Shown here: positions 2,002-27,391 of the stretch, piece after piece
How positions within the stretch are numbered: position 1 is the first letter of the stretch
Layout: every line of letters begins with the position of its first letter
Source: Naegleria gruberi
Taxonomy: Eukaryota
DNA: 33,919 bases
NCBI GenBank assembly: GCA_000004985.1
Contig: GG738948.1
Strand: one strand, 5' to 3'
Notes under the pieces: model-generated
Database searches by the model: none
What the model was told of the DNA's origin: nothing
What the model saw: only the letters and a program-made list of their open reading frames with translations
Translations under genes and position numbers: made by a program

Positions 2002-5000
2002 NNNNNNNNNNNNNNNNNNNNNNNNNNNNNNNNNNNNNNNNNNNNNNNNNNNNNNNNNNNNNNNNNNNNNNNNNNNNNNNNNNNNNNNNNNNNNNNNNNN
2101 NNNNNNNNNNNNNNNNNNNNNNNNNNNNNNNNNNNNNNNNNNNNNNNNNNNNNNNNNNNNNNNNNNNNNNNNNNNNNNNNNNNNNNNNNNNNNNNNNNNN
2201 NNNNNNNNNNNNNNNNNNNNNNNNNNNNNNNNNNNNNNNNNNNNNNNNNNNNNNNNNNNNNNNNNNNNNNNNNNNNNNNNNNNNNNNNNNNNNNNNNNNN
2301 NNNNNNNNNNNNNNNNNNNNNNNNNNNNNNNNNNNNNNNNNNNNNNNNNNNNNNNNNNNNNNNNNNNNNNNNNNNNNNNNNNNNNNNNNNNNNNNNNNNN
2401 NNNNNNNNNNNNNNNNNNNNNNNNNNNNNNNNNNNNNNNNNNNNNNNNNNNNNNNNNNNNNNNNNNNNNNNNNNNNNNNNNNNNNNNNNNNNNNNNNNNN
2501 NNNNNNNNNNNNNNNNNNNNNNNNNNNNNNNNNNNNNNNNNNNNNNNNNNNNNNNNNNNNNNNNNNNNNNNNNNNNNNNNNNNNNNNNNNNNNNNNNNNN
2601 NNNNNNNNNNNNNNNNNNNNNNNNNNNNNNNNNNNNNNNNNNNNNNNNNNNNNNNNNNNNNNNNNNNNNNNNNNNNNNNNNNNNNNNNNNNNNNNNNNNN
2701 NNNNNNNNNNNNNNNNNNNNNNNNNNNNNNNNNNNNNNNNNNNNNNNNNNNNNNNNNNNNNNNNNNNNNNNNNNNNNNNNNNNNNNNNNNNNNNNNNNNN
2801 NNNNNNNNNNNNNNNNNNNNNNNNNNNNNNNNNNNNNNNNNNNNNNNNNNNNNNNNNNNNNNNNNNNNNNNNNNNNNNNNNNNNNNNNNNNNNNNNNNNN
2901 NNNNNNNNNNNNNNNNNNNNNNNNNNNNNNNNNNNNNNNNNNNNNNNNNNNNNNNNNNNNNNNNNNNNNNNNNNNNNNNNNNNNNNNNNNNNNNNNNNNN
3001 NNNNNNNNNNNNNNNNNNNNNNNNNNNNNNNNNNNNNNNNNNNNNNNNNNNNNNNNNNNNNNNNNNNNNNNNNNNNNNNNNNNNNNNNNNNNNNNNNNNN
3101 NNNNNNNNNNNNNNNNNNNNNNNNNNNNNNNNNNNNNNNNNNNNNNNNNNNNNNNNNNNNNNNNNNNNNNNNNNNNNNNNNNNNNNNNNNNNNNNNNNNN
3201 NNNNNNNNNNNNNNNNNNNNNNNNNNNNNNNNNNNNNNNNNNNNNNNNNNNNNNNNNNNNNNNNNNNNNNNNNNNNNNNNNNNNNNNNNNNNNNNNNNNN
3301 NNNNNNNNNNNNNNNNNNNNNNNNNNNNNNNNNNNNNNNNNNNNNNNNNNNNNNNNNNNNNNNNNNNNNNNNNNNNNNNNNNNNNNNNNNNNNNNNNNNN
3401 NNNNNNNNNNNNNNNNNNNNNNNNNNNNNNNNNNNNNNNNNNNNNNNNNNNNNNNNNNNNNNNNNNNNNNNNNNNNNNNNNNNNNNNNNNNNNNNNNNNN
3501 NNNNNNNNNNNNNNNNNNNNNNNNNNNNNNNNNNNNNNNNNNNNNNNNNNNNNNNNNNNNNNNNNNNNNNNNNNNNNNNNNNNNNNNNNNNNNNNNNNNN
3601 NNNNNNNNNNNNNNNNNNNNNNNNNNNNNNNNNNNNNNNNNNNNNNNNNNNNNNNNNNNNNNNNNNNNNNNNNNNNNNNNNNNNNNNNNNNNNNNNNNNN
3701 NNNNNNNNNNNNNNNNNNNNNNNNNNNNNNNNNNNNNNNNNNNNNNNNNNNNNNNNNNNNNNNNNNNNNNNNNNNNNNNNNNNNNNNNNNNNNNNNNNNN
3801 NNNNNNNNNNNNNNNNNNNNNNNNNNNNNNNNNNNNNNNNNNNNNNNNNNNNNNNNNNNNNNNNNNNNNNNNNNNNNNNNNNNNNNNNNNNNNNNNNNNN
3901 NNNNNNNNNNNNNNNNNNNNNNNNNNNNNNNNNNNNNNNNNNNNNNNNNNNNNNNNNNNNNNNNNNNNNNNNNNNNNNNNNNNNNNNNNNNNNNNNNNNN
4001 NNNNNNNNNNNNNNNNNNNNNNNNNNNNNNNNNNNNNNNNNNNNNNNNNNNNNNNNNNNNNNNNNNNNNNNNNNNNNNNNNNNNNNNNNNNNNNNNNNNN
4101 NNNNNNNNNNNNNNNNNNNNNNNNNNNNNNNNNNNNNNNNNNNNNNNNNNNNNNNNNNNNNNNNNNNNNNNNNNNNNNNNNNNNNNNNNNNNNNNNNNNN
4201 NNNNNNNNNNNNNNNNNNNNNNNNNNNNNNNNNNNNNNNNNNNNNNNNNNNNNNNNNNNNNNNNNNNNNNNNNNNNNNNNNNNNNNNNNNNNNNNNNNNN
4301 NNNNNNNNNNNNNNNNNNNNNNNNNNNNNNNNNNNNNNNNNNNNNNNNNNNNNNNNNNNNNNNNNNNNNNNNNNNNNNNNNNNNNNNNNNNNNNNNNNNN
4401 NNNNNNNNNNNNNNNNNNNNNNNNNNNNNNNNNNNNNNNNNNNNNNNNNNNNNNNNNNNNNNNNNNNNNNNNNNNNNNNNNNNNNNNNNNNNNNNNNNNN
4501 NNNNNNNNNNNNNNNNNNNNNNNNNNNNNNNNNNNNNNNNNNNNNNNNNNNNNNNNNNNNNNNNNNNNNNNNNNNNNNNNNNNNNNNNNNNNNNNNNNNN
4601 NNNNNNNNNNNNNNNNNNNNNNNNNNNNNNNNNNNNNNNNNNNNNNNNNNNNNNNNNNNNNNNNNNNNNNNNNNNNNNNNNNNNNNNNNNNNNNNNNNNN
4701 NNNNNNNNNNNNNNNNNNNNNNNNNNNNNNNNNNNNNNNNNNNNNNNNNNNNNNNNNNNNNNNNNNNNNNNNNNNNNNNNNNNNNNNNNNNNNNNNNNNN
4801 NNNNNNNNNNNNNNNNNNNNNNNNNNNNNNNNNNNNNNNNNNNNNNNNNNNNNNNNNNNNNNNNNNNNNNNNNNNNNNNNNNNNNNNNNNNNNNNNNNNN
4901 NNNNNNNNNNNNNNNNNNNNNNNNNNNNNNNNNNNNNNNNNNNNNNNNNNNNNNNNNNNNNNNNNNNNNNNNNNNNNNNNNNNNNNNNNNNNNNNNNNNN

Positions 5001-6998
5001 NNNNNNNNNNNNNNNNNNNNNNNNNNNNNNNNNNNNNNNNNNNNNNNNNNNNNNNNNNNNNNNNNNNNNNNNNNNNNNNNNNNNNNNNNNNNNNNNNNNN
5101 NNNNNNNNNNNNNNNNNNNNNNNNNNNNNNNNNNNNNNNNNNNNNNNNNNNNNNNNNNNNNNNNNNNNNNNNNNNNNNNNNNNNNNNNNNNNNNNNNNNN
5201 NNNNNNNNNNNNNNNNNNNNNNNNNNNNNNNNNNNNNNNNNNNNNNNNNNNNNNNNNNNNNNNNNNNNNNNNNNNNNNNNNNNNNNNNNNNNNNNNNNNN
5301 NNNNNNNNNNNNNNNNNNNNNNNNNNNNNNNNNNNNNNNNNNNNNNNNNNNNNNNNNNNNNNNNNNNNNNNNNNNNNNNNNNNNNNNNNNNNNNNNNNNN
5401 NNNNNNNNNNNNNNNNNNNNNNNNNNNNNNNNNNNNNNNNNNNNNNNNNNNNNNNNNNNNNNNNNNNNNNNNNNNNNNNNNNNNNNNNNNNNNNNNNNNN
5501 NNNNNNNNNNNNNNNNNNNNNNNNNNNNNNNNNNNNNNNNNNNNNNNNNNNNNNNNNNNNNNNNNNNNNNNNNNNNNNNNNNNNNNNNNNNNNNNNNNNN
5601 NNNNNNNNNNNNNNNNNNNNNNNNNNNNNNNNNNNNNNNNNNNNNNNNNNNNNNNNNNNNNNNNNNNNNNNNNNNNNNNNNNNNNNNNNNNNNNNNNNNN
5701 NNNNNNNNNNNNNNNNNNNNNNNNNNNNNNNNNNNNNNNNNNNNNNNNNNNNNNNNNNNNNNNNNNNNNNNNNNNNNNNNNNNNNNNNNNNNNNNNNNNN
5801 NNNNNNNNNNNNNNNNNNNNNNNNNNNNNNNNNNNNNNNNNNNNNNNNNNNNNNNNNNNNNNNNNNNNNNNNNNNNNNNNNNNNNNNNNNNNNNNNNNNN
5901 NNNNNNNNNNNNNNNNNNNNNNNNNNNNNNNNNNNNNNNNNNNNNNNNNNNNNNNNNNNNNNNNNNNNNNNNNNNNNNNNNNNNNNNNNNNNNNNNNNNN
6001 NNNNNNNNNNNNNNNNNNNNNNNNNNNNNNNNNNNNNNNNNNNNNNNNNNNNNNNNNNNNNNNNNNNNNNNNNNNNNNNNNNNNNNNNNNNNNNNNNNNN
6101 NNNNNNNNNNNNNNNNNNNNNNNNNNNNNNNNNNNNNNNNNNNNNNNNNNNNNNNNNNNNNNNNNNNNNNNNNNNNNNNNNNNNNNNNNNNNNNNNNNNN
6201 NNNNNNNNNNNNNNNNNNNNNNNNNNNNNNNNNNNNNNNNNNNNNNNNNNNNNNNNNNNNNNNNNNNNNNNNNNNNNNNNNNNNNNNNNNNNNNNNNNNN
6301 NNNNNNNNNNNNNNNNNNNNNNNNNNNNNNNNNNNNNNNNNNNNNNNNNNNNNNNNNNNNNNNNNNNNNNNNNNNNNNNNNNNNNNNNNNNNNNNNNNNN
6401 NNNNNNNNNNNNNNNNNNNNNNNNNNNNNNNNNNNNNNNNNNNNNNNNNNNNNNNNNNNNNNNNNNNNNNNNNNNNNNNNNNNNNNNNNNNNNNNNNNNN
6501 NNNNNNNNNNNNNNNNNNNNNNNNNNNNNNNNNNNNNNNNNNNNNNNNNNNNNNNNNNNNNNNNNNNNNNNNNNNNNNNNNNNNNNNNNNNNNNNNNNNN
6601 NNNNNNNNNNNNNNNNNNNNNNNNNNNNNNNNNNNNNNNNNNNNNNNNNNNNNNNNNNNNNNNNNNNNNNNNNNNNNNNNNNNNNNNNNNNNNNNNNNNN
6701 NNNNNNNNNNNNNNNNNNNNNNNNNNNNNNNNNNNNNNNNNNNNNNNNNNNNNNNNNNNNNNNNNNNNNNNNNNNNNNNNNNNNNNNNNNNNNNNNNNNN
6801 NNNNNNNNNNNNNNNNNNNNNNNNNNNNNNNNNNNNNNNNNNNNNNNNNNNNNNNNNNNNNNNNNNNNNNNNNNNNNNNNNNNNNNNNNNNNNNNNNNNN
6901 NNNNNNNNNNNNNNNNNNNNNNNNNNNNNNNNNNNNNNNNNNNNNNNNNNNNNNNNNNNNNNNNNNNNNNNNNNNNNNNNNNNNNNNNNNNNNNNNNN
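2002..6998. other. N-run (assembly gap or masked sequence), 4,997 nt
   Basis: Uninterrupted N. Confidence 0.95.
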
Positions 6999-8356
6999 GT
7001 ATCATCCTCTGATTGAGAGGGCTAAACTTGTACATTTTGTGAATAATTACTTGCATTGTTTTGAGAGAGGGGAAGATGTTGAATTGCTTCATAATGATGG
7101 ATGGATAAAATCAAAGGGGGAATTGAGATGTATTTATGCTTTCTATTTGGGTATTTTGACATTGAGTTCACAACTGTTGGGTGAATTGGACTATGTGGAT
7201 TATATTTTGAGAAGGGCAGAATGTGAAATTGCAGCACTTTCTGTGGATCATATCACACAGTTTTATTGGGGTGCCTCTTGTCACTTGATGTTTATGACTT
7301 GTGTCGCAGAAGGAAATCAAATCAAAGCAAGCTATTATCATACCCTTATTAATTTTTATTTGGATAACGAAAAAACCTTGAGAAATAGATTTTATGCTAG
7401 TTTAGTCCATCACAAGACTCTAGTTTCGGCCAGATTTATGAAAGAATTGAATAATATGGAAAATCTGTTGGATAACATGTACCAACTGTTTTTCTACTCT
7501 GTAAATAGAAAACTCGATGAATTCTTACTGCCAGGTACTTGGGACTACATGAGAAATACCAAAATTACTCCTCAAAACTATGTACTCTTCAAACAAGTTT
7601 CTCACTTTATATTCAAGGCCCTCATGAAACACAAATCAGAAGCTATGAAAGCTCTAACTGACTGCCACAGCGATGGATACTTTAAACATCAGAGATTGTT
7701 TACAACAATTTTATCAGAAGGGTATGCATTTTTATTCTTGAAACAGATTCAAGAAGTGAGCTATTCAATGATGGAAGAAAGTGCACTCAGAATAACCTTA
7801 TTGACTGAAAATGAATTGTTTCCGTAAGTATCCAAAATCATCATATTTATAACCATTTTGAAAATTAATTAGATATTGCTTATTTGCAGTTCTTTCACCT
7901 GTTGTGGAAGCTTGTGCATTTCACTTGAATGTTTGTAAAATGGTGGAAAAAGGATTGAAACCTAGAAAAGCCAGCATTCTTACTTCCTCAGGACAAACCA
8001 TCACATTTGACAGTTTCTCAATTCTGGAGAAGGACTTTAGAGCAATCAGCTTGATGAGTAAACGATATAGACGAGTTCAAAATATGCACAAGGATCTCAT
8101 TGATGAAATGACACAAGTTCTCAATAGAAATATTTCTCCACTCAGTTTACTGAAAGATAATTTATCAATCATCAGTTCCTCTGGTACACCAAACGATGAC
8201 ATTCCATTGCAAAATGATGAAGTACTAATGAGTATTCTGAAACAACTCACCCAAGAGGAAGAAATGACTCCTAGCTCCTCACTAAATGAAGTAACTGAAG
8301 AGGCACTAACTCCTTGGGATGAAATCTTTGCAGAGGTAATTTCAGATGTAAGATAG
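6999..8356 (+). CDS. hypothetical protein, 3' portion (possible fungal-type transcription-factor middle-homology region plus acidic C-terminus); join(6999..7823,7873..8356), 5' end in N-gap
   Basis: An open frame enters from the gap (YHPLIERAKLVHFVNNYLHCF…LTENELFP). A GTAAGT donor sits at 7824 and a TTAG acceptor ends at 7872 (49-nt intron). The frame continues as …VEACAFHLNVCKMVEKGLKPRK…EEALTPWDEIFAEVISDVR and ends at TAG 8354-8356. That TAG may instead lie in another intron (a GTAATT donor at 8337) because every other gene here ends on TAA. The domain call is weak. Confidence 0.5.
7010..8314 (+). repeat. Copy A of a 1,305-bp identical duplicated segment (partner 11337..12641)
   Basis: Direct comparison of the two stretches shows no differences over the full length, including intron and coding sequence. 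The offset is 4,327 bp. Confidence 0.9.
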
Positions 8357-8553
8357 AGAGAGTTCATTGTAATTATTGAACCAGCTTATTGTTGAAAATT
8401 TCATATTTGCAAGTTCAAAAAAGTTGAAGCTAATGGAGAATTTTTGAAACTCCAAATTCATAAATTTCTTGAACTTTTTGAAATACTTTAAAATTGTTGA
8501 TTACAAATTCCAAGTTTAGATGACACAAATTTGAATAAAACAAATTGAAAAAA

Positions 8554-9495
8554 ATGAATGAAAACGAAAGCAGCTTTTACTATCAAAAGAATCATCACAC
8601 ATCATCAGTGGAAGTAGTAGTAGGAGGAGAATCAACATCTCCAATCGAAGAGGAAATTACAACACTGCAAGTTCCACAACGATCCATAAAACATCATTCA
8701 AATCTTCCAATTCAACCCATGAAGTTTGTACTCATTTCCGATACACATTGTATGCATGAAATGGTTGATCTGCCTGCAGGTGATGTTCTATTGCATTGTG
8801 GTGACTTTACCAATACTGGATTATTCACAGAAGTTGACACGTTTTTTGAATATTTAATTAAACAATGTGATGGAGTATTTAAATATATTATCATGATTGT
8901 GGGTAGGTTATGAACATGACAAATATCATCATCATCAATATATTATTACATATATTATTGATTTAATAATTAATTATTCATTAAATATATAGGAAATCAT
9001 GAATGGTCACCTGATATTATTGTCTATCCACGATTTCAAAAGTATTTCCGAGAGGAAAAATCTAAATCCACTCTCAAATCACAATATTATTTACTGTTGG
9101 ATGAAAGTGTGACGATTGTGGACGATAATAATCATTCTATCAAGATTCATGGAGTGAGATATAGAGGAAATTGGGCACCACCTTTGTTTTGTAAAAAGAC
9201 ATCGTTCAATATTCCGAATGATATTGACATTCTAATGACACACTTTCCATGTTGTAAATTCAATATGGATAGAACATCAAATGGATCATCGAGAGGATCT
9301 GAAGAGTTGACCACATTGTTGGACTCGAATCATTTCACAAATTTAAAGGTACACTGTTTTGGTCATAATCACTGTCCAAAAGCAAGAGGATTTGCCTATG
9401 AGAAGGAGAGTGACAGAATGTATATTAATGCAATTTCTGTTATTGGCAATAAGGAAGACAAACTAATTGGAAAACCTTTTGTTTTTGAATTTTAA
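8554..9495 (+). CDS. calcineurin-like metallophosphoesterase (MPP superfamily); join(8554..8902,8993..9495)
   Basis: Exon 1 carries FVLISDTHCMH and LLHCGDFTNTG (the DxH and GDxxD metal-binding motifs). A GTAGGT donor at 8903 and a TATATAG acceptor ending 8992 define a 90-nt phase-1 intron. Splicing restores the GNHE motif (G|GA AAT CAT GAA → GNHEW). Exon 2 contains HGVRY…HFP…GHNH, and the stop is TAA at 9493-9495. Confidence 0.7.
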
Positions 9496-9501
9496 AAAAA
9501 A

Positions 9502-10587
9502 ATGAAAAGAGAATCAGCTGTGACCTTTGTGTTGATTCTACACGATTTTAATCATGTGCAGACTGATCAAGAGGAAGAGGAATTTAGTCATTTAGATTGG
9601 CTCTTGAGAAAATTAACGGAAAATATGAGGAAAGGGATGAGAAAATCAAAAGATTTTTTGGAATGTGGATTGAGTGATTCTCTAAAGATTGTTGGTTGCA
9701 TTCCGAAATTATTGGTAATGCCATCCTATGATGAAGATAGTTTGGGTATTATTGCTTCTTCTTGGGAGGATTCGGAATGTGGCAAATTTTCACTTCCATA
9801 CGATGTAAAAATATCACATGAAAATCACATATTGCTAGTTGCTGATCATGGCAATAGGAGGATTCAAGCCTTTGATTTAACAACACGAGAATTTCAATAT
9901 AAAATTGATTTGGTTTTCAAACCACTTTTTATGGAAATAGATATTTATGGGAATTTATTAGTTGCAGGTGATGATGAATGTATTTATTGTTACGATTTGA
10001 TAAAGCATGAACAACTTTGGAGGAGAGGTCTAAGATTGAAACCTGGCAATGGACCCTATCAATTCAATGGAATTTGTGGAATACATGTGAATACTTTTGA
10101 AAATGGTGGAAATTATGGTGATATATTCATATCAGATTCGTCCAATCATAGAATTAAAGTGCTTTCAAAGGATGGTGACTTTTTATATGCTTTTGGAAAG
10201 AGATGTGAAAGAAAGCTCAAAATGGAGTCACCTTTTGGTATTACAGTCAATCATGAAAATCAATGTATCATATCTGATAGACATAATAATAGAGTGTATG
10301 TTACAGATACAAGAGGCAAGGTATTATTTTTCAAATTTGGTAGCAGAGGTAATGGAGTGGGTGAGTTTGAATTTCCAACATCTGTAACAGTAGACAAGAT
10401 CACAAAACAAATTCTTGTTTGTGATGGAATCACTAATAGAAGAGTTTTAATATTTTCACCAGAGGGAAATTACCTAAAATCAATCCAGTTCAGTGAGGGA
10501 AATCCAAATGGATTGTGTATCAATCATATCACTGGCGAGCTCTATATAGCAGACAAGGAAAATCATCGAATAATAATATTGAAGTAA
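9502..10587 (+). CDS. NHL-repeat (six-bladed beta-propeller) protein, 361 aa, single exon
   Basis: NHL signatures recur in the translation: NRRIQAFDL, NHRIKVLSKDGDF, NNRVYVTDTRGK, NRRVLIFSPEGN and NHRIIIL. The ATG is at 9502 and the stop is TAA. Confidence 0.75.
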   Translation: MKRESAVTFVLILHDFNHVQTDQEEEEFSHLDWLLRKLTENMRKGMRKSKDFLECGLSDSLKIVGCIPKLLVMPSYDEDSLGIIASSWEDSECGKFSLPYDVKISHENHILLVADHGNRRIQAFDLTTREFQYKIDLVFKPLFMEIDIYGNLLVAGDDECIYCYDLIKHEQLWRRGLRLKPGNGPYQFNGICGIHVNTFENGGNYGDIFISDSSNHRIKVLSKDGDFLYAFGKRCERKLKMESPFGITVNHENQCIISDRHNNRVYVTDTRGKVLFFKFGSRGNGVGEFEFPTSVTVDKITKQILVCDGITNRRVLIFSPEGNYLKSIQFSEGNPNGLCINHITGELYIADKENHRIIILK

Positions 10588-10735
10588 TAAACTTCCAACT
10601 TAATCCGTCTTCAACAATTAGTATCCTTATTGTTGTTATTCTTTCCGCCCTTTGATGACTTTTTTTTGTTCTTGTTAGATCCAGATCCTTTCTTGTCATT
10701 TTTGATGGATTCTCTATGTTTCGTCAGACATTCTT

Positions 10736-11269
10736 TTAAGGCTCCACCTTTTCACAATTAACACAATACTCATCCCAATATAAAAACTTACAATAATTTT
10801 CAAAACCAAGTTTTTCCAAGGCATTCAAAACATCTTCTCCTGCCACAGTTTTTCTCTTTTCTTCTACACAAAGATCGGATGCTTCACCTGTCACAAAACA
10901 AATAAATTCTGTGACACATTCTTGCATACACTCCTTTGCTTCCTTTGAAATTTTAGCACTCTTATTAAACATTTCCACAGTTTTTTTCATAATTCTCTCA
11001 ATGTTTGCATATGGCAACAATCTGTCTTGTTCCTTGAATTCAAAGAGAGGGTCAAAGAAACGTCCTCCATTTTCATCATCATCAACTTCCTCAGTCTCGT
11101 CCTCATCAGAATCCCTCTCAACTGGATGATTTGTCGTATAACTTGGAAAGTATGCATTTGCTTCTCCTGGTTTGGCCATAATCGGAACCTCATTATGTTC
11201 CACCATTCTTTGATCACTATCCTCCACCACCGACAGGTGTTGTTGTTGTTGTTCAGCCGAACTCATCAT
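10736..11269 (-). CDS. NFYB: CCAAT-binding factor subunit B (NF-YB/HAP3) histone-fold protein, 177 aa, single exon
   Basis: The histone-fold core [18 protein letters not shown]…[55 protein letters not shown] closely matches the NF-YB consensus (REQDRFLPIANV…[33 protein letters not shown]…LGFEDY). The first ATG is at 11269 ([10 protein letters not shown]…) and the stop is TAA at 10736-10738. Further upstream in the track ORF is gap and repeat read-through. Confidence 0.75.
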
Positions 11270-11286
11270 GATGATTGTTGTTATCG

Positions 11287-11336
11287 NNNNNNNNNNNNNN
11301 NNNNNNNNNNNNNNNNNNNNNNNNNNNNNNNNNNNN
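11287..11336. other. 50-N scaffold gap
   Basis: Uninterrupted N. Confidence 0.95.
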
Positions 11337-12641
11337 TGATTGAGAGGGCTAAACTTGTACATTTTGTGAATAATTACTTGCATTGTTTTGAGAGAGGGGA
11401 AGATGTTGAATTGCTTCATAATGATGGATGGATAAAATCAAAGGGGGAATTGAGATGTATTTATGCTTTCTATTTGGGTATTTTGACATTGAGTTCACAA
11501 CTGTTGGGTGAATTGGACTATGTGGATTATATTTTGAGAAGGGCAGAATGTGAAATTGCAGCACTTTCTGTGGATCATATCACACAGTTTTATTGGGGTG
11601 CCTCTTGTCACTTGATGTTTATGACTTGTGTCGCAGAAGGAAATCAAATCAAAGCAAGCTATTATCATACCCTTATTAATTTTTATTTGGATAACGAAAA
11701 AACCTTGAGAAATAGATTTTATGCTAGTTTAGTCCATCACAAGACTCTAGTTTCGGCCAGATTTATGAAAGAATTGAATAATATGGAAAATCTGTTGGAT
11801 AACATGTACCAACTGTTTTTCTACTCTGTAAATAGAAAACTCGATGAATTCTTACTGCCAGGTACTTGGGACTACATGAGAAATACCAAAATTACTCCTC
11901 AAAACTATGTACTCTTCAAACAAGTTTCTCACTTTATATTCAAGGCCCTCATGAAACACAAATCAGAAGCTATGAAAGCTCTAACTGACTGCCACAGCGA
12001 TGGATACTTTAAACATCAGAGATTGTTTACAACAATTTTATCAGAAGGGTATGCATTTTTATTCTTGAAACAGATTCAAGAAGTGAGCTATTCAATGATG
12101 GAAGAAAGTGCACTCAGAATAACCTTATTGACTGAAAATGAATTGTTTCCGTAAGTATCCAAAATCATCATATTTATAACCATTTTGAAAATTAATTAGA
12201 TATTGCTTATTTGCAGTTCTTTCACCTGTTGTGGAAGCTTGTGCATTTCACTTGAATGTTTGTAAAATGGTGGAAAAAGGATTGAAACCTAGAAAAGCCA
12301 GCATTCTTACTTCCTCAGGACAAACCATCACATTTGACAGTTTCTCAATTCTGGAGAAGGACTTTAGAGCAATCAGCTTGATGAGTAAACGATATAGACG
12401 AGTTCAAAATATGCACAAGGATCTCATTGATGAAATGACACAAGTTCTCAATAGAAATATTTCTCCACTCAGTTTACTGAAAGATAATTTATCAATCATC
12501 AGTTCCTCTGGTACACCAAACGATGACATTCCATTGCAAAATGATGAAGTACTAATGAGTATTCTGAAACAACTCACCCAAGAGGAAGAAATGACTCCTA
12601 GCTCCTCACTAAATGAAGTAACTGAAGAGGCACTAACTCCT
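11337..12641 (+). CDS. Copy B of the 6999..8356 gene (identical sequence; exon 11337..12150, intron 12151..12199, exon 12200..>12641), truncated at both ends by gaps
   Basis: Identical to 7010..8314 by direct comparison, with the same GTAAGT…TTAG intron. Confidence 0.45.
11337..12641 (+). repeat. Copy B of the 1,305-bp identical duplicated segment
   Basis: See copy A. It starts at the first base after the 50-N gap and ends at the first base of the next N-run. Confidence 0.9.
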
Positions 12642-16914: not shown

Positions 16915-16916
16915 TC

Positions 16917-17423
16917 AACGATTCTATGGTCATTTATGCTGGTGAGCTGAACATTGATGTACCTGTTTTAACATGTGATTTGGTCATCTTCCATTTCAAA
17001 ACAAATTCTTGGACCGTTGTGAAATTTGAGGAAACAAAGATATGCCCAGTACCTCAGCCAATTTATGGCAATACTATTTGTTTGATAGATCAACGTTTTT
17101 TATTAAGCTTGGGAGGTTGTGAACAGAGCAATAGAATACCTAAAAATGATTGCTATGTTTTCGATTTGAAAAGGAATGAGTGGAGTGTTTGCATTCAATT
17201 AGGAGTTGCTGCAGGAAGGTTATTGTGCTCCTCACTGGTGCATGATGCAACTGGAAGTGGCTTGTATTTTTATGGAGGAAAAACTGAGGAGGATGTTTCA
17301 GCTGATTCCATCATTCATGTGAGGTATCGATTTGCTGGAGAATTCTTCTTTGTAGAGAAGATTTTCCAAAAACTCAAGAATAATCAATTATGTGACATTG
17401 GGATACTGATATCAGATGAATAA
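16917..17423 (+). CDS. Kelch-repeat protein, C-terminal fragment (5' part in N-gap)
   Basis: Kelch-like blades appear in the translation: SMVIYAGE…, NTICLIDQRFLLSLGG…, NDCYVFDLKRNEWSV and SGLYFYGGKTEED. The stop is TAA at 17421-17423. Confidence 0.5.
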   Translation, partial: NDSMVIYAGELNIDVPVLTCDLVIFHFKTNSWTVVKFEETKICPVPQPIYGNTICLIDQRFLLSLGGCEQSNRIPKNDCYVFDLKRNEWSVCIQLGVAAGRLLCSSLVHDATGSGLYFYGGKTEEDVSADSIIHVRYRFAGEFFFVEKIFQKLKNNQLCDIGILISDE

Positions 17424-17739
17424 ATTAATGGTTGAAAAGACTTAGAATTTTGTACAAAAGCTAATGAACTAATGGAAGAAATGAACTTGTGTAATGGATG
17501 AAAAGATTACAATTTTTTACAATTTTCTTTATTGATGAAATTATGGAAGTTATGAACCTTATTGAATGGTGAACTAACATTATTCGAATCTTGAAGAAAA
17601 TAGAAGAGAGATAGTTTGGAACATCTTGAACAATTTAATGAACTACAATATCTCAAAGAAAACTATCTCTCTTTTCATGAATCAAACATACAAACGAAAC
17701 TAACCATAAAGTTTCATTTCCAATTTGAAACAGAAATCA

Positions 17740-17769
17740 ATAAATGAACTTGTGAAATAGTTCATTTAT
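17740..17769. repeat. 10-bp/10-bp perfect inverted repeat (ataaatgaac … gttcatttat) with a 10-nt spacer, lying about 320 nt downstream of the Kelch gene stop (potential hairpin)
   Basis: The arms are exact reverse complements. One arm overlaps a 13-mer (aaatgaacttgtg) that also occurs at 17478-17490. Confidence 0.4.
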
Positions 17770-18592
17770 CTCACAAACCCCTTTCGTTTACAACACATCT
17801 CTATTTGAAATTGTTTACAATGAAACATGAAAAATCAAAATGAGAATCAATATCTCTGTCACATTGTAATTGAATCAAAAATCTTCTATACAATCAACAA
17901 CTGCTGACTCATCACTGAACGTCCAATTATTCGATCGAACGAACGGACTATTAATTTTGTAAAAAATTTCAAAACAAAATTAGAAAAATGAAATCTCGTC
18001 AATTTCGTCAACAAATTTGCAACCTTAAGGTTCTTGATGGAAAGACACGAGCGAAAGCGTCAAGTCATATTATTTGGGAAGTGAACAGAACTGTGCTTAT
18101 CTCTTCTCTTATTCGAAACTTGAACATTGGGTTCATTTGGTTGAACATTTAATGAAGTATATCTATTCGATACAACCACACTAATGGAAACAATGAAGAA
18201 TTAAACTGTTCCCACCATTATTTTAGAACGGACACGGTTTGGAATTTGTAAAACCACTAACTGCAATGATTTCTTTAACGAACAATGACATATTCGAAAG
18301 ATTCTCAAAAATACAATGAACAGTAGTGTGAAATATTTGTAGTGAGAGTCGACTGTAGTAAAAGATTCCAAAAGATTCCTCAAATTTGTTATTACAATGA
18401 TTACTAACCCGCACAACTGCAAGAATCAATACAACGACACTGGTAAAAATTCTTGAGAAAACGTCTCCGGCCAGCGTCCGTGATTCAACAATTAAAAAAA
18501 AATGATCAAACAACAACATGATACTATCTCATCCTTTGATCACTCTATAGAGATCCAACAACAAAAAAACAACACAACTTTTACTTTTAAAT

Positions 18593-19366
18593 ATGACTAA
18601 ATCAGCAAATAAATTAATAGATTTCGTTACTTATACCAATGATTGCTTTACGTCAAAAAGCAAGCCAAAGGTAGAGAAGATCTTTGACTCAATCGAGAAG
18701 AAGGTTGCCAAGAAAAGAAAGGTAAGTTTTTTATTTATTATTATTATATATGTATTATAATTGAATTGAATTAAATAATACAATTAGAGCACTACCACCA
18801 AGAAAACAAGCAAGAACACACTCATCAACATTCCAAAGAAAGCAACCAAGCCTACACCTTGTCAATTTGGTGGTGTTGATTGGAGATCTGTTATTGCCAC
18901 TTATGATCAAGATATATTGGAACTCTACTATCAAAACAGAAGACTAAAAGAATTTACAATGGAGGCTGCAAACATTTTGCACACAAGATTGCAACCAAAT
19001 TTCAGCAAGTTCGGAACGTGGAATTTTCTAGGATCTTGTACAAAGGAATTATTGAACAAACTGTTCTCTCATCAAGATTGTTTGACTTGGGACGCTCCTT
19101 TTACATCAAAAGAAAACGGACAAGTTATCAAGAAGACTCAAACCTTCTTCTATTTTTGTGGATCTATGCCAGATTTATTAACAGGAGAGTTTGAATGGGA
19201 ATTTAAGCAACATCCAATTACGGAAGATTTCAATTTTAAACAGATCGAATCTTTTTATAATGAGCTAGTAATTATCATCAAACCAGATAATCGAGTCTTC
19301 TGTCATTACTCTCAAGTAACACAAAGCTTTTGTCCAATTCTCAAGAAATATCTTCGTGTTTGTTAA
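18593..19366 (+). CDS. hypothetical Lys-rich protein, 235 aa; join(18593..18721,18788..19366)
   Basis: The ATG is at 18593 (MTKSANKLIDF…KKVAKKRK). A GTAAGT donor at 18722 and a CAATTAG acceptor ending 18787 define a 66-nt phase-0 intron. Exon 2 (STTTKKTSKN…FGGVDWRSV…YLRVC*) keeps the frame and ends on TAA. I recognise no domain. Confidence 0.5.
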
Positions 19367-19410
19367 GTTTCAATAAATATGCCAATTTCAAAAATTACGT
19401 CAAGTTCAAT

Positions 19411-19460: not shown

Positions 19461-21584
19461 CACCAATTTTCATCATTCATTTCACCAAGTTCCATAATTA
19501 GTAATTTGGAGTGAAGGAATGAGTGATCACTTTGTTCAACTTCTTTCAGTTCAGTGTGTTTTCCTAGCCATGGGAAACCATTTACACTTGCTAAATAAAT
19601 ACGTCTGTGCTCTTGTTGTAACAGTTGGAGAGTTTCTAACTTATTTGCTTTTCCACCTGAAGCTGTGCTTCTTTCTAGAGCTAACCGATGGCCAGCATGG
19701 ATGTTTTCACTTCCTTCATTAGCAAATTTCACTAATGGACCATAAATGAAAATCAAATCTGGAACATGCTTAATCAAAATGTGGAAGTAATATGCAAATT
19801 TTGATGTTGGATAAATCTCTCTCAATAAACGGCCAACGTACTTGCACATTAATTGTAAAGTGTCCTTCTTGTCCACATCACCAATTAGCGAATCAGGACC
19901 TTCAATAAAATCAAAAAAAATAACTCGAACCAACTCCCACAACATCACTCCTTTGTAATCCAAATAGCCATCAAATATTTTCTCAAAGTTGCGGAGGATT
20001 TCATCAACTTGATCACCATTTAAATATGGAATTTTTGGATAATGTTGATCACTCACACCTTCATCTTCATCCTCTTGTCTCTCGTTTCTGTATTTGAATT
20101 GAGATAGATGTGGTAATCTTTTCATTCTTGATTCAATTACATCCCATACATCTTTTCCGTGTTGGAGTAAAATCTGTACCACCAAACAAGAAACAATTCT
20201 CATCTTCATATGCAAGGAACAAATAATATTATGGACTAGGACATTAGGCATCATTCTGAAAAATAATGTTCTTGGATCATTATCATGTTCATAAAGATGA
20301 CGTTGTGATTTCTTACATTTACAATAAGGACAAAAACATTCTTCATCATTCAAGTCAGATATTAATCCAAACATCTTCAAATCATGTACCATGAATATTT
20401 TGATTGGAATGGAAGTATCATTATACATTATTTCAAAGAAACCAGTTAAAGAATTGTAACTTTCCTCTAATATTGAAGTAATGAACCTTAAAATGGCATT
20501 AGATGCTTCCATATTTTCATCATAATCTAGAATGGCACAAATAATTTGAGAGAATCTGGATTGTGCTGCCACTTGTAAATTTAAAGGAGCAACAGATCCC
20601 ACCAAATAAGTCTCAGTTCCCTTATCTAATGAAAGTTTCAAGTCTACACTAGAAAGGCTATTGCTAATATTATTCTTGCTACAAATTGATTTGTGAATAT
20701 TTAACATGTCACCCAATACTTTCACAAAATTACAACAAACGGCTACACCATTAACAAACACGTTATATCTAGCTTGGGTGCATTCATGAATGGCACTTCT
20801 CAATCTACACAATGTTCTAGAACAAGGAAGAATACATTTCAAACCTGTATATTCAATGAATGTTTGATATTTCTCATCACTTAGTAGAATGAAATCTTTC
20901 ACATATTGAATTAGTTTCTTGCTTATATCTAATTTACTTTTGACTGTAGAAACAGCATTCTTGATTTGTAACCATAATGATTCGTTTTCTTTACCTGTGG
21001 ATGGATTAATTCTCATACACCTTAACATCTTCACAAATTCTGGGATATTTCTTTGAAAGTAGAGAGCTAACATTAACAGTAAGTTTAATCCACAAGCTGT
21101 ACAAATACCATACAAAATATTCATAACATTATTTACAATTTTGTTTCTATAGGTAGCATCTGTCATTTCTGTAATTTTCTTTCTATACTTTGTGGAACAT
21201 GTGATACTTTCATTACCACAAGCAGAACAGCAACCTCCTACGAATTTCAAATTAATTCCTGACTGCTCAACATTATTTCTTATTACAATGGGTGTTAAAT
21301 CTTGGACTAAATATTTGGAAATTAATTCCAAAACAGATTCTTTACATTTACAGGATGGACTCAATAGAAATGATAAGGCCCAAACCGGTTCAACAAATTT
21401 ATTTTTTTCAATCATCATTCCTTTCCAATTGGATTTATTAGGTTTAAAATATTTTGGCTTTCTTGGAGTTGTACTATATTTCTTTAATAATTTTGTAATA
21501 TTAATGTATTTTTCTTCATTTTGGGTTGTTATTTCAATATCAGTGCGATCAAAAATAGTATGGATATTTGGAATTACCTCACTT
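19461..21584 (-). CDS. large hypothetical protein with Cys clusters (at least 708 aa resolved), open at both ends into N-runs; possibly a transposase (KDZ/Plavaka/CACTA-like or other) — family not confirmed
   Basis: A continuous 2,124-nt minus-strand frame has no stop up to the 21585 gap; I translated 21418-21584 by hand (SEVIPNIHTIFDRTDIEITTQNEEKYINITKLLKKYSTTPRKPKYFKPNKSNWKGMMIEKNKF…) to check this. Cys clusters include GGCCSACGNESITC, GICTACG and ECFCPYCKCKKSQRHLYEHD, and there is an acidic stretch (RNERQEDEDEGVSD). It has no kinase or other common catalytic motif I recognise. Confidence 0.45.
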
Positions 21585-26323: not shown

Positions 26324-27391
26324 ATGGTTTATCACTTTATTGTTCTCTCGCATGGAAATAACGGCCAGCACGAGGATATGGAATATTTACAACATGACAT
26401 CCAGTTAGAATTTCATAAGAAATATCCAATTTTGGATTCAATTCTTCCCGATGATCAATTATTTGCTCTGCGTCCATCATCAAACTCCAAGGACACACAT
26501 CATGGAGTGGCAGTTGGTGGTAAGAGAATGGCCCAAGAAATTATTGAATATTTCAGGAAGGAAATTTTACCCAAATTTACTGAAAGAAACAAGAAGGTTA
26601 AATTTTCCCTAATTGGTCATTCGTTAGGAGGTCTCTATTGTAGATATGCTGCCTATGTGTTGATGAATGAATATGAGGATGAATTCTCTAAATATTTTGA
26701 GCCAATTGGGTTGACAACTATTTGTTCTCCTCATTTGGGATCGAAGAGAACTAGCAGTGGAGGATGGACTGATTTATATGGAAATGTTGTGAGTACAATT
26801 GCAAATACATATGTGGGACACTTTCTTGGTGATACTGGTAAGCAATTGGCTTTGAGTGATCCATTGCTGATGGAGATGTCAGAACCAGAATCGAAATTTA
26901 TATCTGCATGGAATAGTTTCAAATTCAAGACACTGATTGGAAGTACTCATTACGACATTTCAGTTCCTCATTCAGGGGCTTGCATCTGTGCAAAATCTAC
27001 ATTCCAACCTCCACAGAAAGGTCCTATTGAGTTTTCAATTGTTGGACACAGTGGATTTGATTCAGATAATTATTCAGATATTTTCACACAAGATAAGGAG
27101 TTAGATTTTCAAGTTGAGGACTTTGATGAATCAATTGAATTCATTCCAGATTCCAGTAATGAAAATTTAATAAGCACCAAAATGCTCAATAATTTACAAA
27201 AGCATGTAAATTGTAGAAGAATTCACATTCAATTTTCCTATCCATCATTCTATCATTGCATGAATGGTTTTGTCCATGACGTGGTCATTAACAAGGTAAA
27301 GATGCATTATTGGATAAACAAGAATGAGAATGCTGCCATTGATTGTGTTAATACCATTGCTAGAATGGTCATTACTGATCATTCCCAATAA
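26324..27391 (+). CDS. DUF676-family putative serine esterase/lipase (alpha/beta hydrolase), 355 aa, single exon
   Basis: The N-terminus HFIVLSHGNNGQHEDM and the nucleophile elbow LIGHSLGGLYCRYAAY are characteristic of DUF676 (PF05057) lipase-like proteins. The ATG is at 26324 and the stop is TAA at 27389-27391. Confidence 0.75.
   Translation: MVYHFIVLSHGNNGQHEDMEYLQHDIQLEFHKKYPILDSILPDDQLFALRPSSNSKDTHHGVAVGGKRMAQEIIEYFRKEILPKFTERNKKVKFSLIGHSLGGLYCRYAAYVLMNEYEDEFSKYFEPIGLTTICSPHLGSKRTSSGGWTDLYGNVVSTIANTYVGHFLGDTGKQLALSDPLLMEMSEPESKFISAWNSFKFKTLIGSTHYDISVPHSGACICAKSTFQPPQKGPIEFSIVGHSGFDSDNYSDIFTQDKELDFQVEDFDESIEFIPDSSNENLISTKMLNNLQKHVNCRRIHIQFSYPSFYHCMNGFVHDVVINKVKMHYWINKNENAAIDCVNTIARMVITDHSQ

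Follow-up and report, generated by a model that had tools for sequence, protein, structure and literature searches.

A perfect 1.3-kb duplicate in a Naegleria gruberi NEG-M scaffold is very probably a redundant contained contig

Contained contigs, or false gap-flanking duplications, are recognized in assemblies as gap-bounded contigs whose whole sequence recurs with 100% identity in a neighbouring contig and that have no unique flank; a placeholder gap, absence of the duplicate from a better allele and gap sizes that agree with an overlay of the two contigs complete the pattern. Haplotig scaffolds of heterozygous diploids run collinear with a second scaffold that covers the same region, whereas a recent tandem segmental duplication gives two direct perfect copies with genes between them. 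The genome of Naegleria gruberi is a Sanger draft of 1,977 scaffolds from a heterozygous diploid source (PMC9928731). Literature searches for statements on redundant N. gruberi scaffolds, and for the project behind run ERR1078381, which is used below, found nothing useful.

In this study, a stretch of 33,919 nt (hereafter the window) was analyzed, which is an entire NEG-M scaffold of this draft and consists of 57% N. It contains two copies, A and B, of one 1305-nt segment. The locus has all of the above features of contained contigs and differs from them only in the fourfold representation of part of the region. The window is collinear with a 304-kb scaffold at 0–2 amino-acid differences per gene, as haplotig scaffolds are; splitting of haplotypes explains a duplicate between scaffolds, whereas one within a scaffold needs an extra unmerged contig. 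With recent tandem duplications the locus shares two direct perfect copies, 4.3 kb apart, that enclose genes. However, it has no junction, the sequenced pieces show no second set of the intervening genes, the ends of copy B are contig ends, and neither the allele nor a 99%-identical strain has the duplicate. Copy B is very probably an artefact of assembly and scaffolding.

The identical segment and the genes around it

The features of the window that are used below are as follows.

2002–6998: N run of 4997 N that precedes contig A and conceals the 5' third of the Zn2Cys6 gene
6999–11286: contig A, 4288 nt, with the 3' part of the Zn2Cys6 gene and the phosphoesterase, NHL and NF-YB genes
7000–8356, + strand: 3' part of the Zn2Cys6 gene, about codons 152–585 of the 585-aa allele P0007 (NAEGRDRAFT_73231)
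7010–8314, + strand: copy A, in its natural context, an unbroken run into 8315 onwards
7825–7873, + strand: intron of 49 nt, GTAAGT...TTAG, within the repeat; its excision restores the frame and gives P0007 exactly
8545–9495, + strand: metallophosphoesterase-like gene, split into two ORF pieces by an intron around 8914–8973
9502–10587, + strand: NHL-repeat beta-propeller gene (NHL, E = 1.4e-15)
10611–11269, − strand: NF-YB histone-fold gene (CBFD_NFYB_HMF, E = 3.8e-22)
11287–11336: N run of 50 N, a placeholder and not a measured distance of 50 nt
11337–12641, + strand: copy B, a whole contig of 1305 nt, 100% contained in contig A
12642–16914: N run of 4273 N between copy B and piece C (16915 onwards)
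16917–17423, + strand: 3' end of a Kelch-repeat gene, residues 306–473; its main-scaffold allele is P0135 (NAEGRDRAFT_52713)

The initial annotation had described 7010–8314 and 11337–12641 as a perfect duplicate that includes the 49-nt intron, and the two segments do agree at 1305 of 1305 bases with an offset of 4327. Identity over this length is impossible by chance, and the argument made there against an old paralogue was correct, such an origin being ruled out by full identity over both the intron and the coding sequence. The positions of the N runs also agree with the earlier description of copy A as beginning 11 nt after an N run and of copy B as flush against gaps at both ends. Copy B corresponds to positions 12–1316 of the piece 6999–11286; with N on both sides and identity from its first base to its last, it has no unique base, and since copy B itself stops at both ends, the match goes no further. 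No terminal, inverted or other repeats are present at the ends of the segment. The seven contig pieces that make up the window contain no other repeat of this kind, and short unmerged terminal overlaps between neighbouring pieces were looked for and not found. The scaffold also carries a large unannotated Cys-rich ORF at 19463–21583. Continuation of a 707-aa ORF past the second 50-N gap was checked and not found.

The duplicated gene is annotated locally by two truncated models, NAEGRDRAFT_76254 (P0001) for copy A and NAEGRDRAFT_76257 (P0006) for copy B. The spliced translation of the window is identical to P0007 at all 434 of its 434 residues, and P0007 and P0005 place about 150 further codons upstream of position 7000. 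A Zn_clus domain (PF00172) with six cysteines occupies residues 41–77 of P0007 (E = 1.1e-8; score 35.4 bits, cut-off 21); it lies in the part concealed by the 4997-N gap, outside the duplicated segment, in which there is no Pfam match. Four protein clusters among 5.8 billion proteins match the Zn2Cys6 protein. Its paralogues number three, at 45–47% identity, and all sequences of at least 90% identity trace to one locus, as allelic or redundant versions or as the gene of a related strain.

The phosphoesterase, NHL and NF-YB genes lie between the copies as the initial annotation had claimed, the phosphoesterase with weak, sub-threshold Metallophos matches only; its two exons correspond to profile positions 1–61 and 68–191. 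Exon 1 of the NF-YB gene (local model NAEGRDRAFT_54587, P0010) extends from 11269/11266 to 10790 and is followed by a short intron and by exon 2 at 10745–10611. Homologues of NF-YB were also examined for shared gene order, in a JGI metagenome contig (L004) and Willaertia magna (L005); their neighbours differ and are uninformative.

The allele, the related strain and the gap sizes

A scaffold of 304,373 nt carries the Zn2Cys6 gene (P0007, D2VW32, tag 73231), the NF-YB gene (P0130, D2VW30, 73229), the Kelch gene (P0135, D2VW29) and a DUF676 hydrolase gene (P0134, D2VW26, 73225). Compared with the window, these proteins differ at 0 of 434, 0, 1 of 168 and 2 of 337 residues, respectively. With 0–2 differences per gene, the window is an allelic or redundant copy of this region, and the protein comparison suggests that it most likely represents the second haplotype, the properly assembled version of the region being that on the 304-kb scaffold. 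The 90%-identity cluster of the Zn2Cys6 protein has just one member on that scaffold, where the Kelch and NF-YB proteins have the consecutive accessions D2VW29 and D2VW30 with no Zn2Cys6 fragment between them. The single-copy state was read from the annotated proteins and from the order of accessions and locus tags; proteins and the related strain, rather than NEG-M DNA, thus indicate indirectly that the duplicate is absent from the better-assembled allele. An 8.4-kb scaffold carries the 5' part of the Zn2Cys6 gene and differs by small indels. Positions 7000–7475 are present four times, on the 304-kb scaffold, on the 8.4-kb scaffold, in copy A and in copy B; two haplotypes would call for fewer, and the excess is only partly explained.

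Independent contigs were available from the ERR1078381 assemblies, which represent a Naegleria 99% identical to the window, that is, a related strain and not NEG-M. Two of them run past window position 11286, L002 by 300 nt and L003 by 274 nt, and enter AT-rich intergenic DNA followed by the start of a divergently oriented Kelch gene, MDNLSTDSQSKTEEIIAIPDDD; the extensions beyond 11286 contain no match to copy B. Two others, L001 (7332–8947) and L006 (7386–8468), look like two alleles of the related strain. Both pass 8314 unbroken into the flank of the phosphoesterase gene, so that copy B has nothing more than a contig end on its right.

The Kelch gene connects the pieces on either side of copy B. 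Its main-scaffold allele, P0135, was found by an exhaustive phmmer search, after a word-index search that used the Kelch fragment as query (E ≤ 1e-20) had given none. P0135 starts MDNLSTDSQSKTSSEEIIAIPDDD, and its residues 306–473 are the ORF at window positions 16917–17420; the 5' end of the gene lies 215 nt past 11286 in the independent contigs. With its 5' end beyond contig A and its 3' end in piece C, one gene bridges both. The DNA missing between contig A and piece C therefore amounts to 215 + 915 − 2 = 1128 nt plus introns. If copy B is overlaid on copy A, the 4273-N gap must also accommodate the 2972 nt of contig A from 8315 to 11286 (11286 − 8314), so that a distance of 4273 − (11286 − 8314) = 1301 nt is predicted between contig A and piece C. 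The gap sizes are thus consistent with copy B overlying copy A (1301 nt versus 1128 nt plus introns). In the deposited scaffold the same interval measures 5628 nt.

Origin of the second copy

The initial annotation had offered an assembly artefact as one of three explanations without committing itself, and it is this explanation that the evidence favours. Copy B is contained in contig A, an allele with the same gene order has a single copy, the independent contigs continue past NF-YB in sequence unrelated to copy B, the Kelch gene bridges contig A and piece C, and the gap sizes fit numerically. Furthermore, at 8x Sanger coverage a genuine second copy would be expected to leave reads across its junctions, and copy B has no junction. 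We infer the exact behaviour of the assembler as follows. A few reads over 7010–8314 would not have been merged with contig A and would have formed a separate contig of 1305 nt, which clone-mate links to the piece from 16915 onwards would then have pulled into the scaffold. Its estimated start, 11 nt after that of contig A, would have placed it after contig A; a distance from A to B that came out negative would have been entered as 50 placeholder N, and 4273 N would stand for the stretch separating B from the following contig. In the true order, the Zn2Cys6, phosphoesterase, NHL and NF-YB genes would be followed by about 1.1–1.3 kb that holds the 5' two thirds of the Kelch gene, and then by the piece from 16915 onwards.

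Within this explanation, copy B may be a fragment of the other haplotype, that of the 304-kb scaffold, a variant that differs only in the origin of the reads and that we regard as possible but rather doubtful. The 304-kb allele is identical in protein across the segment, so reads from either haplotype would give the same contig, and the assembly demonstrably splits haplotypes into extra scaffolds. However, in a comparison with the 304-kb scaffold at the protein level a fragment of the other haplotype looks the same as redundancy within one haplotype, and if the haplotypes do not differ here, it is hard to see why the reads should have failed to merge. The haplotype of the copy B reads, same or other, is likewise something that we infer.

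A real and very recent duplication, specific to the haplotype of the window, is very unlikely. Under this reading, either 1.3 kb or more of the Zn2Cys6 gene or a tandem unit of some 4.3 kb would have been copied into the NF-YB–Kelch intergenic region, and the assembler would have split the contigs where the repeat begins and ends. Perfect identity suits a very recent event, assemblers do break at the boundaries of perfect repeats and so leave copies that begin at contig edges, the 4273-N gap is roomy enough for 1.1 kb of Kelch 5' sequence after copy B, and the region is over-represented in the assembly. However, there is no junction sequence, and neither end of copy B has a unique base. The 304-kb allele is single-copy, with NF-YB and Kelch consecutive; the 99%-identical strain continues in unrelated sequence for at least 300 nt, although copy B should start there only 51 nt away, and has no fork at 8314. 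About 3 kb of the gap would also be left unaccounted for, whereas the overlay fits. The tandem unit of 4.3 kb with three genes, which had been proposed from the sequence of the window, is left unsupported: its expected junction falls in the 50-N gap, where the related contigs run for 300 nt or more through ordinary intergenic DNA and Kelch sequence, and copy B is followed by the 4273-N gap and then by the 3' end of the Kelch gene rather than by the phosphoesterase gene. It is very unlikely, in particular, that one NEG-M haplotype carries a new insertion of at least 1.3 kb of Zn2Cys6 3' sequence in the shared promoter region of NF-YB and Kelch; such an insertion, if true, would amount to a heterozygous structural variant seen before it had diverged at all.

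That the segment is part of a high-copy gene family or of a mobile element whose copies the assembler mixed up is extremely improbable: the gene does have N. gruberi paralogues, and the Cys-rich ORF at 19463–21583 could derive from an element, but only four clusters among 5.8 billion proteins match, the three paralogues at 45–47% identity contradict the high-copy family suggested earlier, the sequences of at least 90% identity all trace to a single locus (versions of it or the related strain), the segment ends have no terminal or other repeats, and the segment is internal to an ordinary two-exon gene, with ends that are contig ends and not biological boundaries.

As an artefact, which is the reading that we prefer, the duplicate is a matter of quality control only and brings no new biology. 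The deposited scaffold would then be too long by about 4.3 kb in the interval between contig A and piece C, and it gives rise to NAEGRDRAFT_76254 and NAEGRDRAFT_76257, two truncated models of the gene whose complete form is NAEGRDRAFT_73231. Counts of family size, recent duplicates and copy number in N. gruberi that include small scaffolds would be inflated by such cases.

The duplicate and the gene it carries

The perfect 1.3-kb duplicate described in the initial annotation was borne out as stated: segments 7010-8314 (copy A) and 11337-12641 (copy B), at an offset of 4327 nt, are identical at 1305 of 1305 positions, and a self-BLAST of the seven pieces of the window recovered this pair and no other repeat. 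Between the seven sequence stretches lie N runs of 4997, 50, 4273, 50, 4650 and 5340 bases (57% N in total). Copy A begins 11 nt into contig A (6999-11286), which continues unbroken beyond it; copy B makes up the entire contig 11337-12641 (contig B), which is contained in its neighbour without a base of its own. Ahead of the repeat, contig A has 11 bases (6999-7009, G TAT CAT CCT C) that read ..YHPL, where the P0007 and P0005 alleles have ..GIHPL; the difference points to a one-base loss at the extreme contig end, typical of a low-quality read tail. Close to both scaffold ends, at 90 and 33908, a lone ambiguous N lies inside continuous sequence, consistent with a low-coverage Sanger consensus.

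The repeat codes for the C-terminal portion of a protein and is split by a 49-nt intron (7825-7873), excision of which restores the frame. The cluster of this protein at 90% identity has six members.

Members of the 90%-identity cluster
P0001 (NAEGRDRAFT_76254): truncated model, copy A, window scaffold
P0006 (76257): truncated model, copy B, 179 aa, window scaffold
P0007 (NAEGRDRAFT_73231, UniProt D2VW32): full-length, 585 aa, 304,373-nt scaffold
P0005: N-terminal fragment, 8,453-nt scaffold
Two ORF calls: assemblies of sequencing run ERR1078381

All 434 residues encoded in the window are identical to P0007, the N-terminus of which carries a Zn(2)-Cys(6) cluster domain (PF00172, E=1.1e-8), a 'fungal' binuclear cluster domain here encoded by a heterolobosean amoeba; the C-terminal 435 aa matched no Pfam family. 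Because gaps truncate the gene, there are two artefactual gene models, at 11337-12154 and 7286-8356, both starting at an internal Met (MFMTCVAEG...), and the copy-B model reads through to a stop within the unspliced intron.

The three genes that had been placed between the copies were also recovered.

Genes between the copies
Metallophosphoesterase-like gene (weak matches)
NHL-repeat gene
NF-YB gene, minus strand

The phosphoesterase-like ORF ends at 9495, and just 6 nt separate its stop codon from the ATG of the NHL ORF (9502; interval 9493-9504); the two ORFs may be annotated, or function, as a single gene. Elsewhere, a Cys-rich open frame of 707 codons (19463-21583, minus strand) spans a whole contig piece with both ends open; it gave no Pfam match beyond a faint KilA-N hint (E=0.036) and no continuation in the adjacent piece past the second 50-N gap, and its origin could lie in a mobile element or a virus.

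Collinearity with the 304-kb scaffold

The whole window (1-33919) is a complete small scaffold of the N. gruberi NEG-M assembly, which is Sanger-based and comprises 40.9 Mb in 1,977 scaffolds, the organism being diploid with recorded heterozygosity (PMC9928731). It matches a region of the 304-kb scaffold (tags 73225-73231) gene for gene, with 0-2 amino-acid differences each, and its gene order is that of the locus tags and UniProt accessions.

Window genes and their 304-kb counterparts
NF-YB: P0130, tag 73229, D2VW30; identical when spliced alike
26324-27391, DUF676 hydrolase: P0134, tag 73225, D2VW26; 2/337 residues differ
16917-17420, Kelch ORF: P0135, D2VW29; 1/168 residues differ

This near-identity is the pattern that haplotype splitting would leave in a heterozygous diploid draft. 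Among its annotated proteins, the 304-kb scaffold has just one representative of the 90% cluster; Kelch (D2VW29) and NF-YB (D2VW30) have consecutive accessions there, and a single accession, D2VW31, stands between NF-YB and the Zn2Cys6 gene (D2VW32). Copy B is therefore the only element of the window off collinearity with that scaffold, on the basis of annotation rather than DNA. The 5' part of the Zn2Cys6 gene occurs in a further version on the 8.4-kb scaffold, its product P0005 showing two substitutions and two one-residue indels relative to P0007. Since the window, 304-kb and 8.4-kb scaffolds all carry versions, 7000-7475 is represented four times in the assembly, which exceeds the need of two haplotypes.

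Sequence beyond the contig ends

Two independent assemblies of run ERR1078381 (project PRJEB11402), labelled a metagenome and containing a Naegleria about 99% identical to NEG-M, provided contigs that cross 8314 or run past the right end of contig A. The hydrolase of this Naegleria has the residues of the 304-kb allele at both variable sites, not those of the window.

External contigs past the end of contig A
L002: matches 11286 down to 9556, extends 300 nt past 11286
L003: matches 11286 down to 9913, extends 274 nt past 11286

Both extensions consist of AT-rich intergenic DNA followed, at 215 nt, by a plus-strand gene start, MDNLSTDSQSKTEEIIAIPDDD; they have no similarity to copy B or elsewhere in the window, which makes the 50-N gap a placeholder that measures no distance. 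Contigs L001 and L006, which differ by one residue (V versus A) in the Zn2Cys6 gene and look like two alleles, both pass 8314 into the phosphoesterase flank, so that the right-hand limit of copy B is nothing more than a contig end.

When the Kelch ORF at the start of piece 16915-19410 was used as the query of an exhaustive phmmer search, it matched P0135, a 473-aa protein encoded on the 304-kb scaffold. Its N-terminus, MDNLSTDSQSKTSSEEIIAIPDDD, is the gene start found past contig A in L002, and its residues 306-473 correspond to the window ORF 16917-17420; one gene therefore starts just past the edge of contig A and ends in the piece next after copy B. Between 11286 and 16915 the absent DNA thus amounts to 215 + 305 x 3 - 2 = 1128 nt, plus any introns, versus 5628 nt (50 + 1305 + 4273) in the scaffold as deposited.

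Origin of copy B

Of the three options listed in the initial annotation, an assembly artefact is favoured by the overlay geometry and by the bridging Kelch gene. If contig B were truly placed on 7010-8314, the scaffolder's estimate of 4273 nt from B to the next piece would include the 2972 nt by which contig A extends past 8314, and 1301 nt would be left between contig A and that piece, in agreement with 1128 nt plus introns. Contig A would then start 11 nt before contig B, sorting on estimated starts would give the order A, B and the piece from 16915, and the negative A-to-B gap would be written as the minimum of 50 N. Overlay and start-sorting would reproduce the deposited scaffold, the numbers coming from the sequence and the assembler behaviour being our inference. 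The reads of contig B could come from this haplotype or from the other.

A real, haplotype-specific duplication is improbable. Contigs are expected to break where a perfect repeat begins and ends, and the 4273-N gap has room for the 5' part of the Kelch gene; however, the duplication requires an insertion into a 215-nt promoter region, and neither the allele nor the related strain has that insertion. There is also no junction read for it, and some 3 kb of the gap would go unexplained. The data contradict a high-copy family or a mobile element, as the Zn2Cys6 protein has only three paralogues (P0002, P0003 and P0004), which show 45-47% identity and of which two are likewise encoded on the 304-kb scaffold, and terminal repeats were looked for at the repeat and none were found.

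The duplicate is thus real in the file and very probably not real in the genome. Copy B belongs to a familiar class of draft-assembly artefacts and, as such, the duplicate would matter for curation only.
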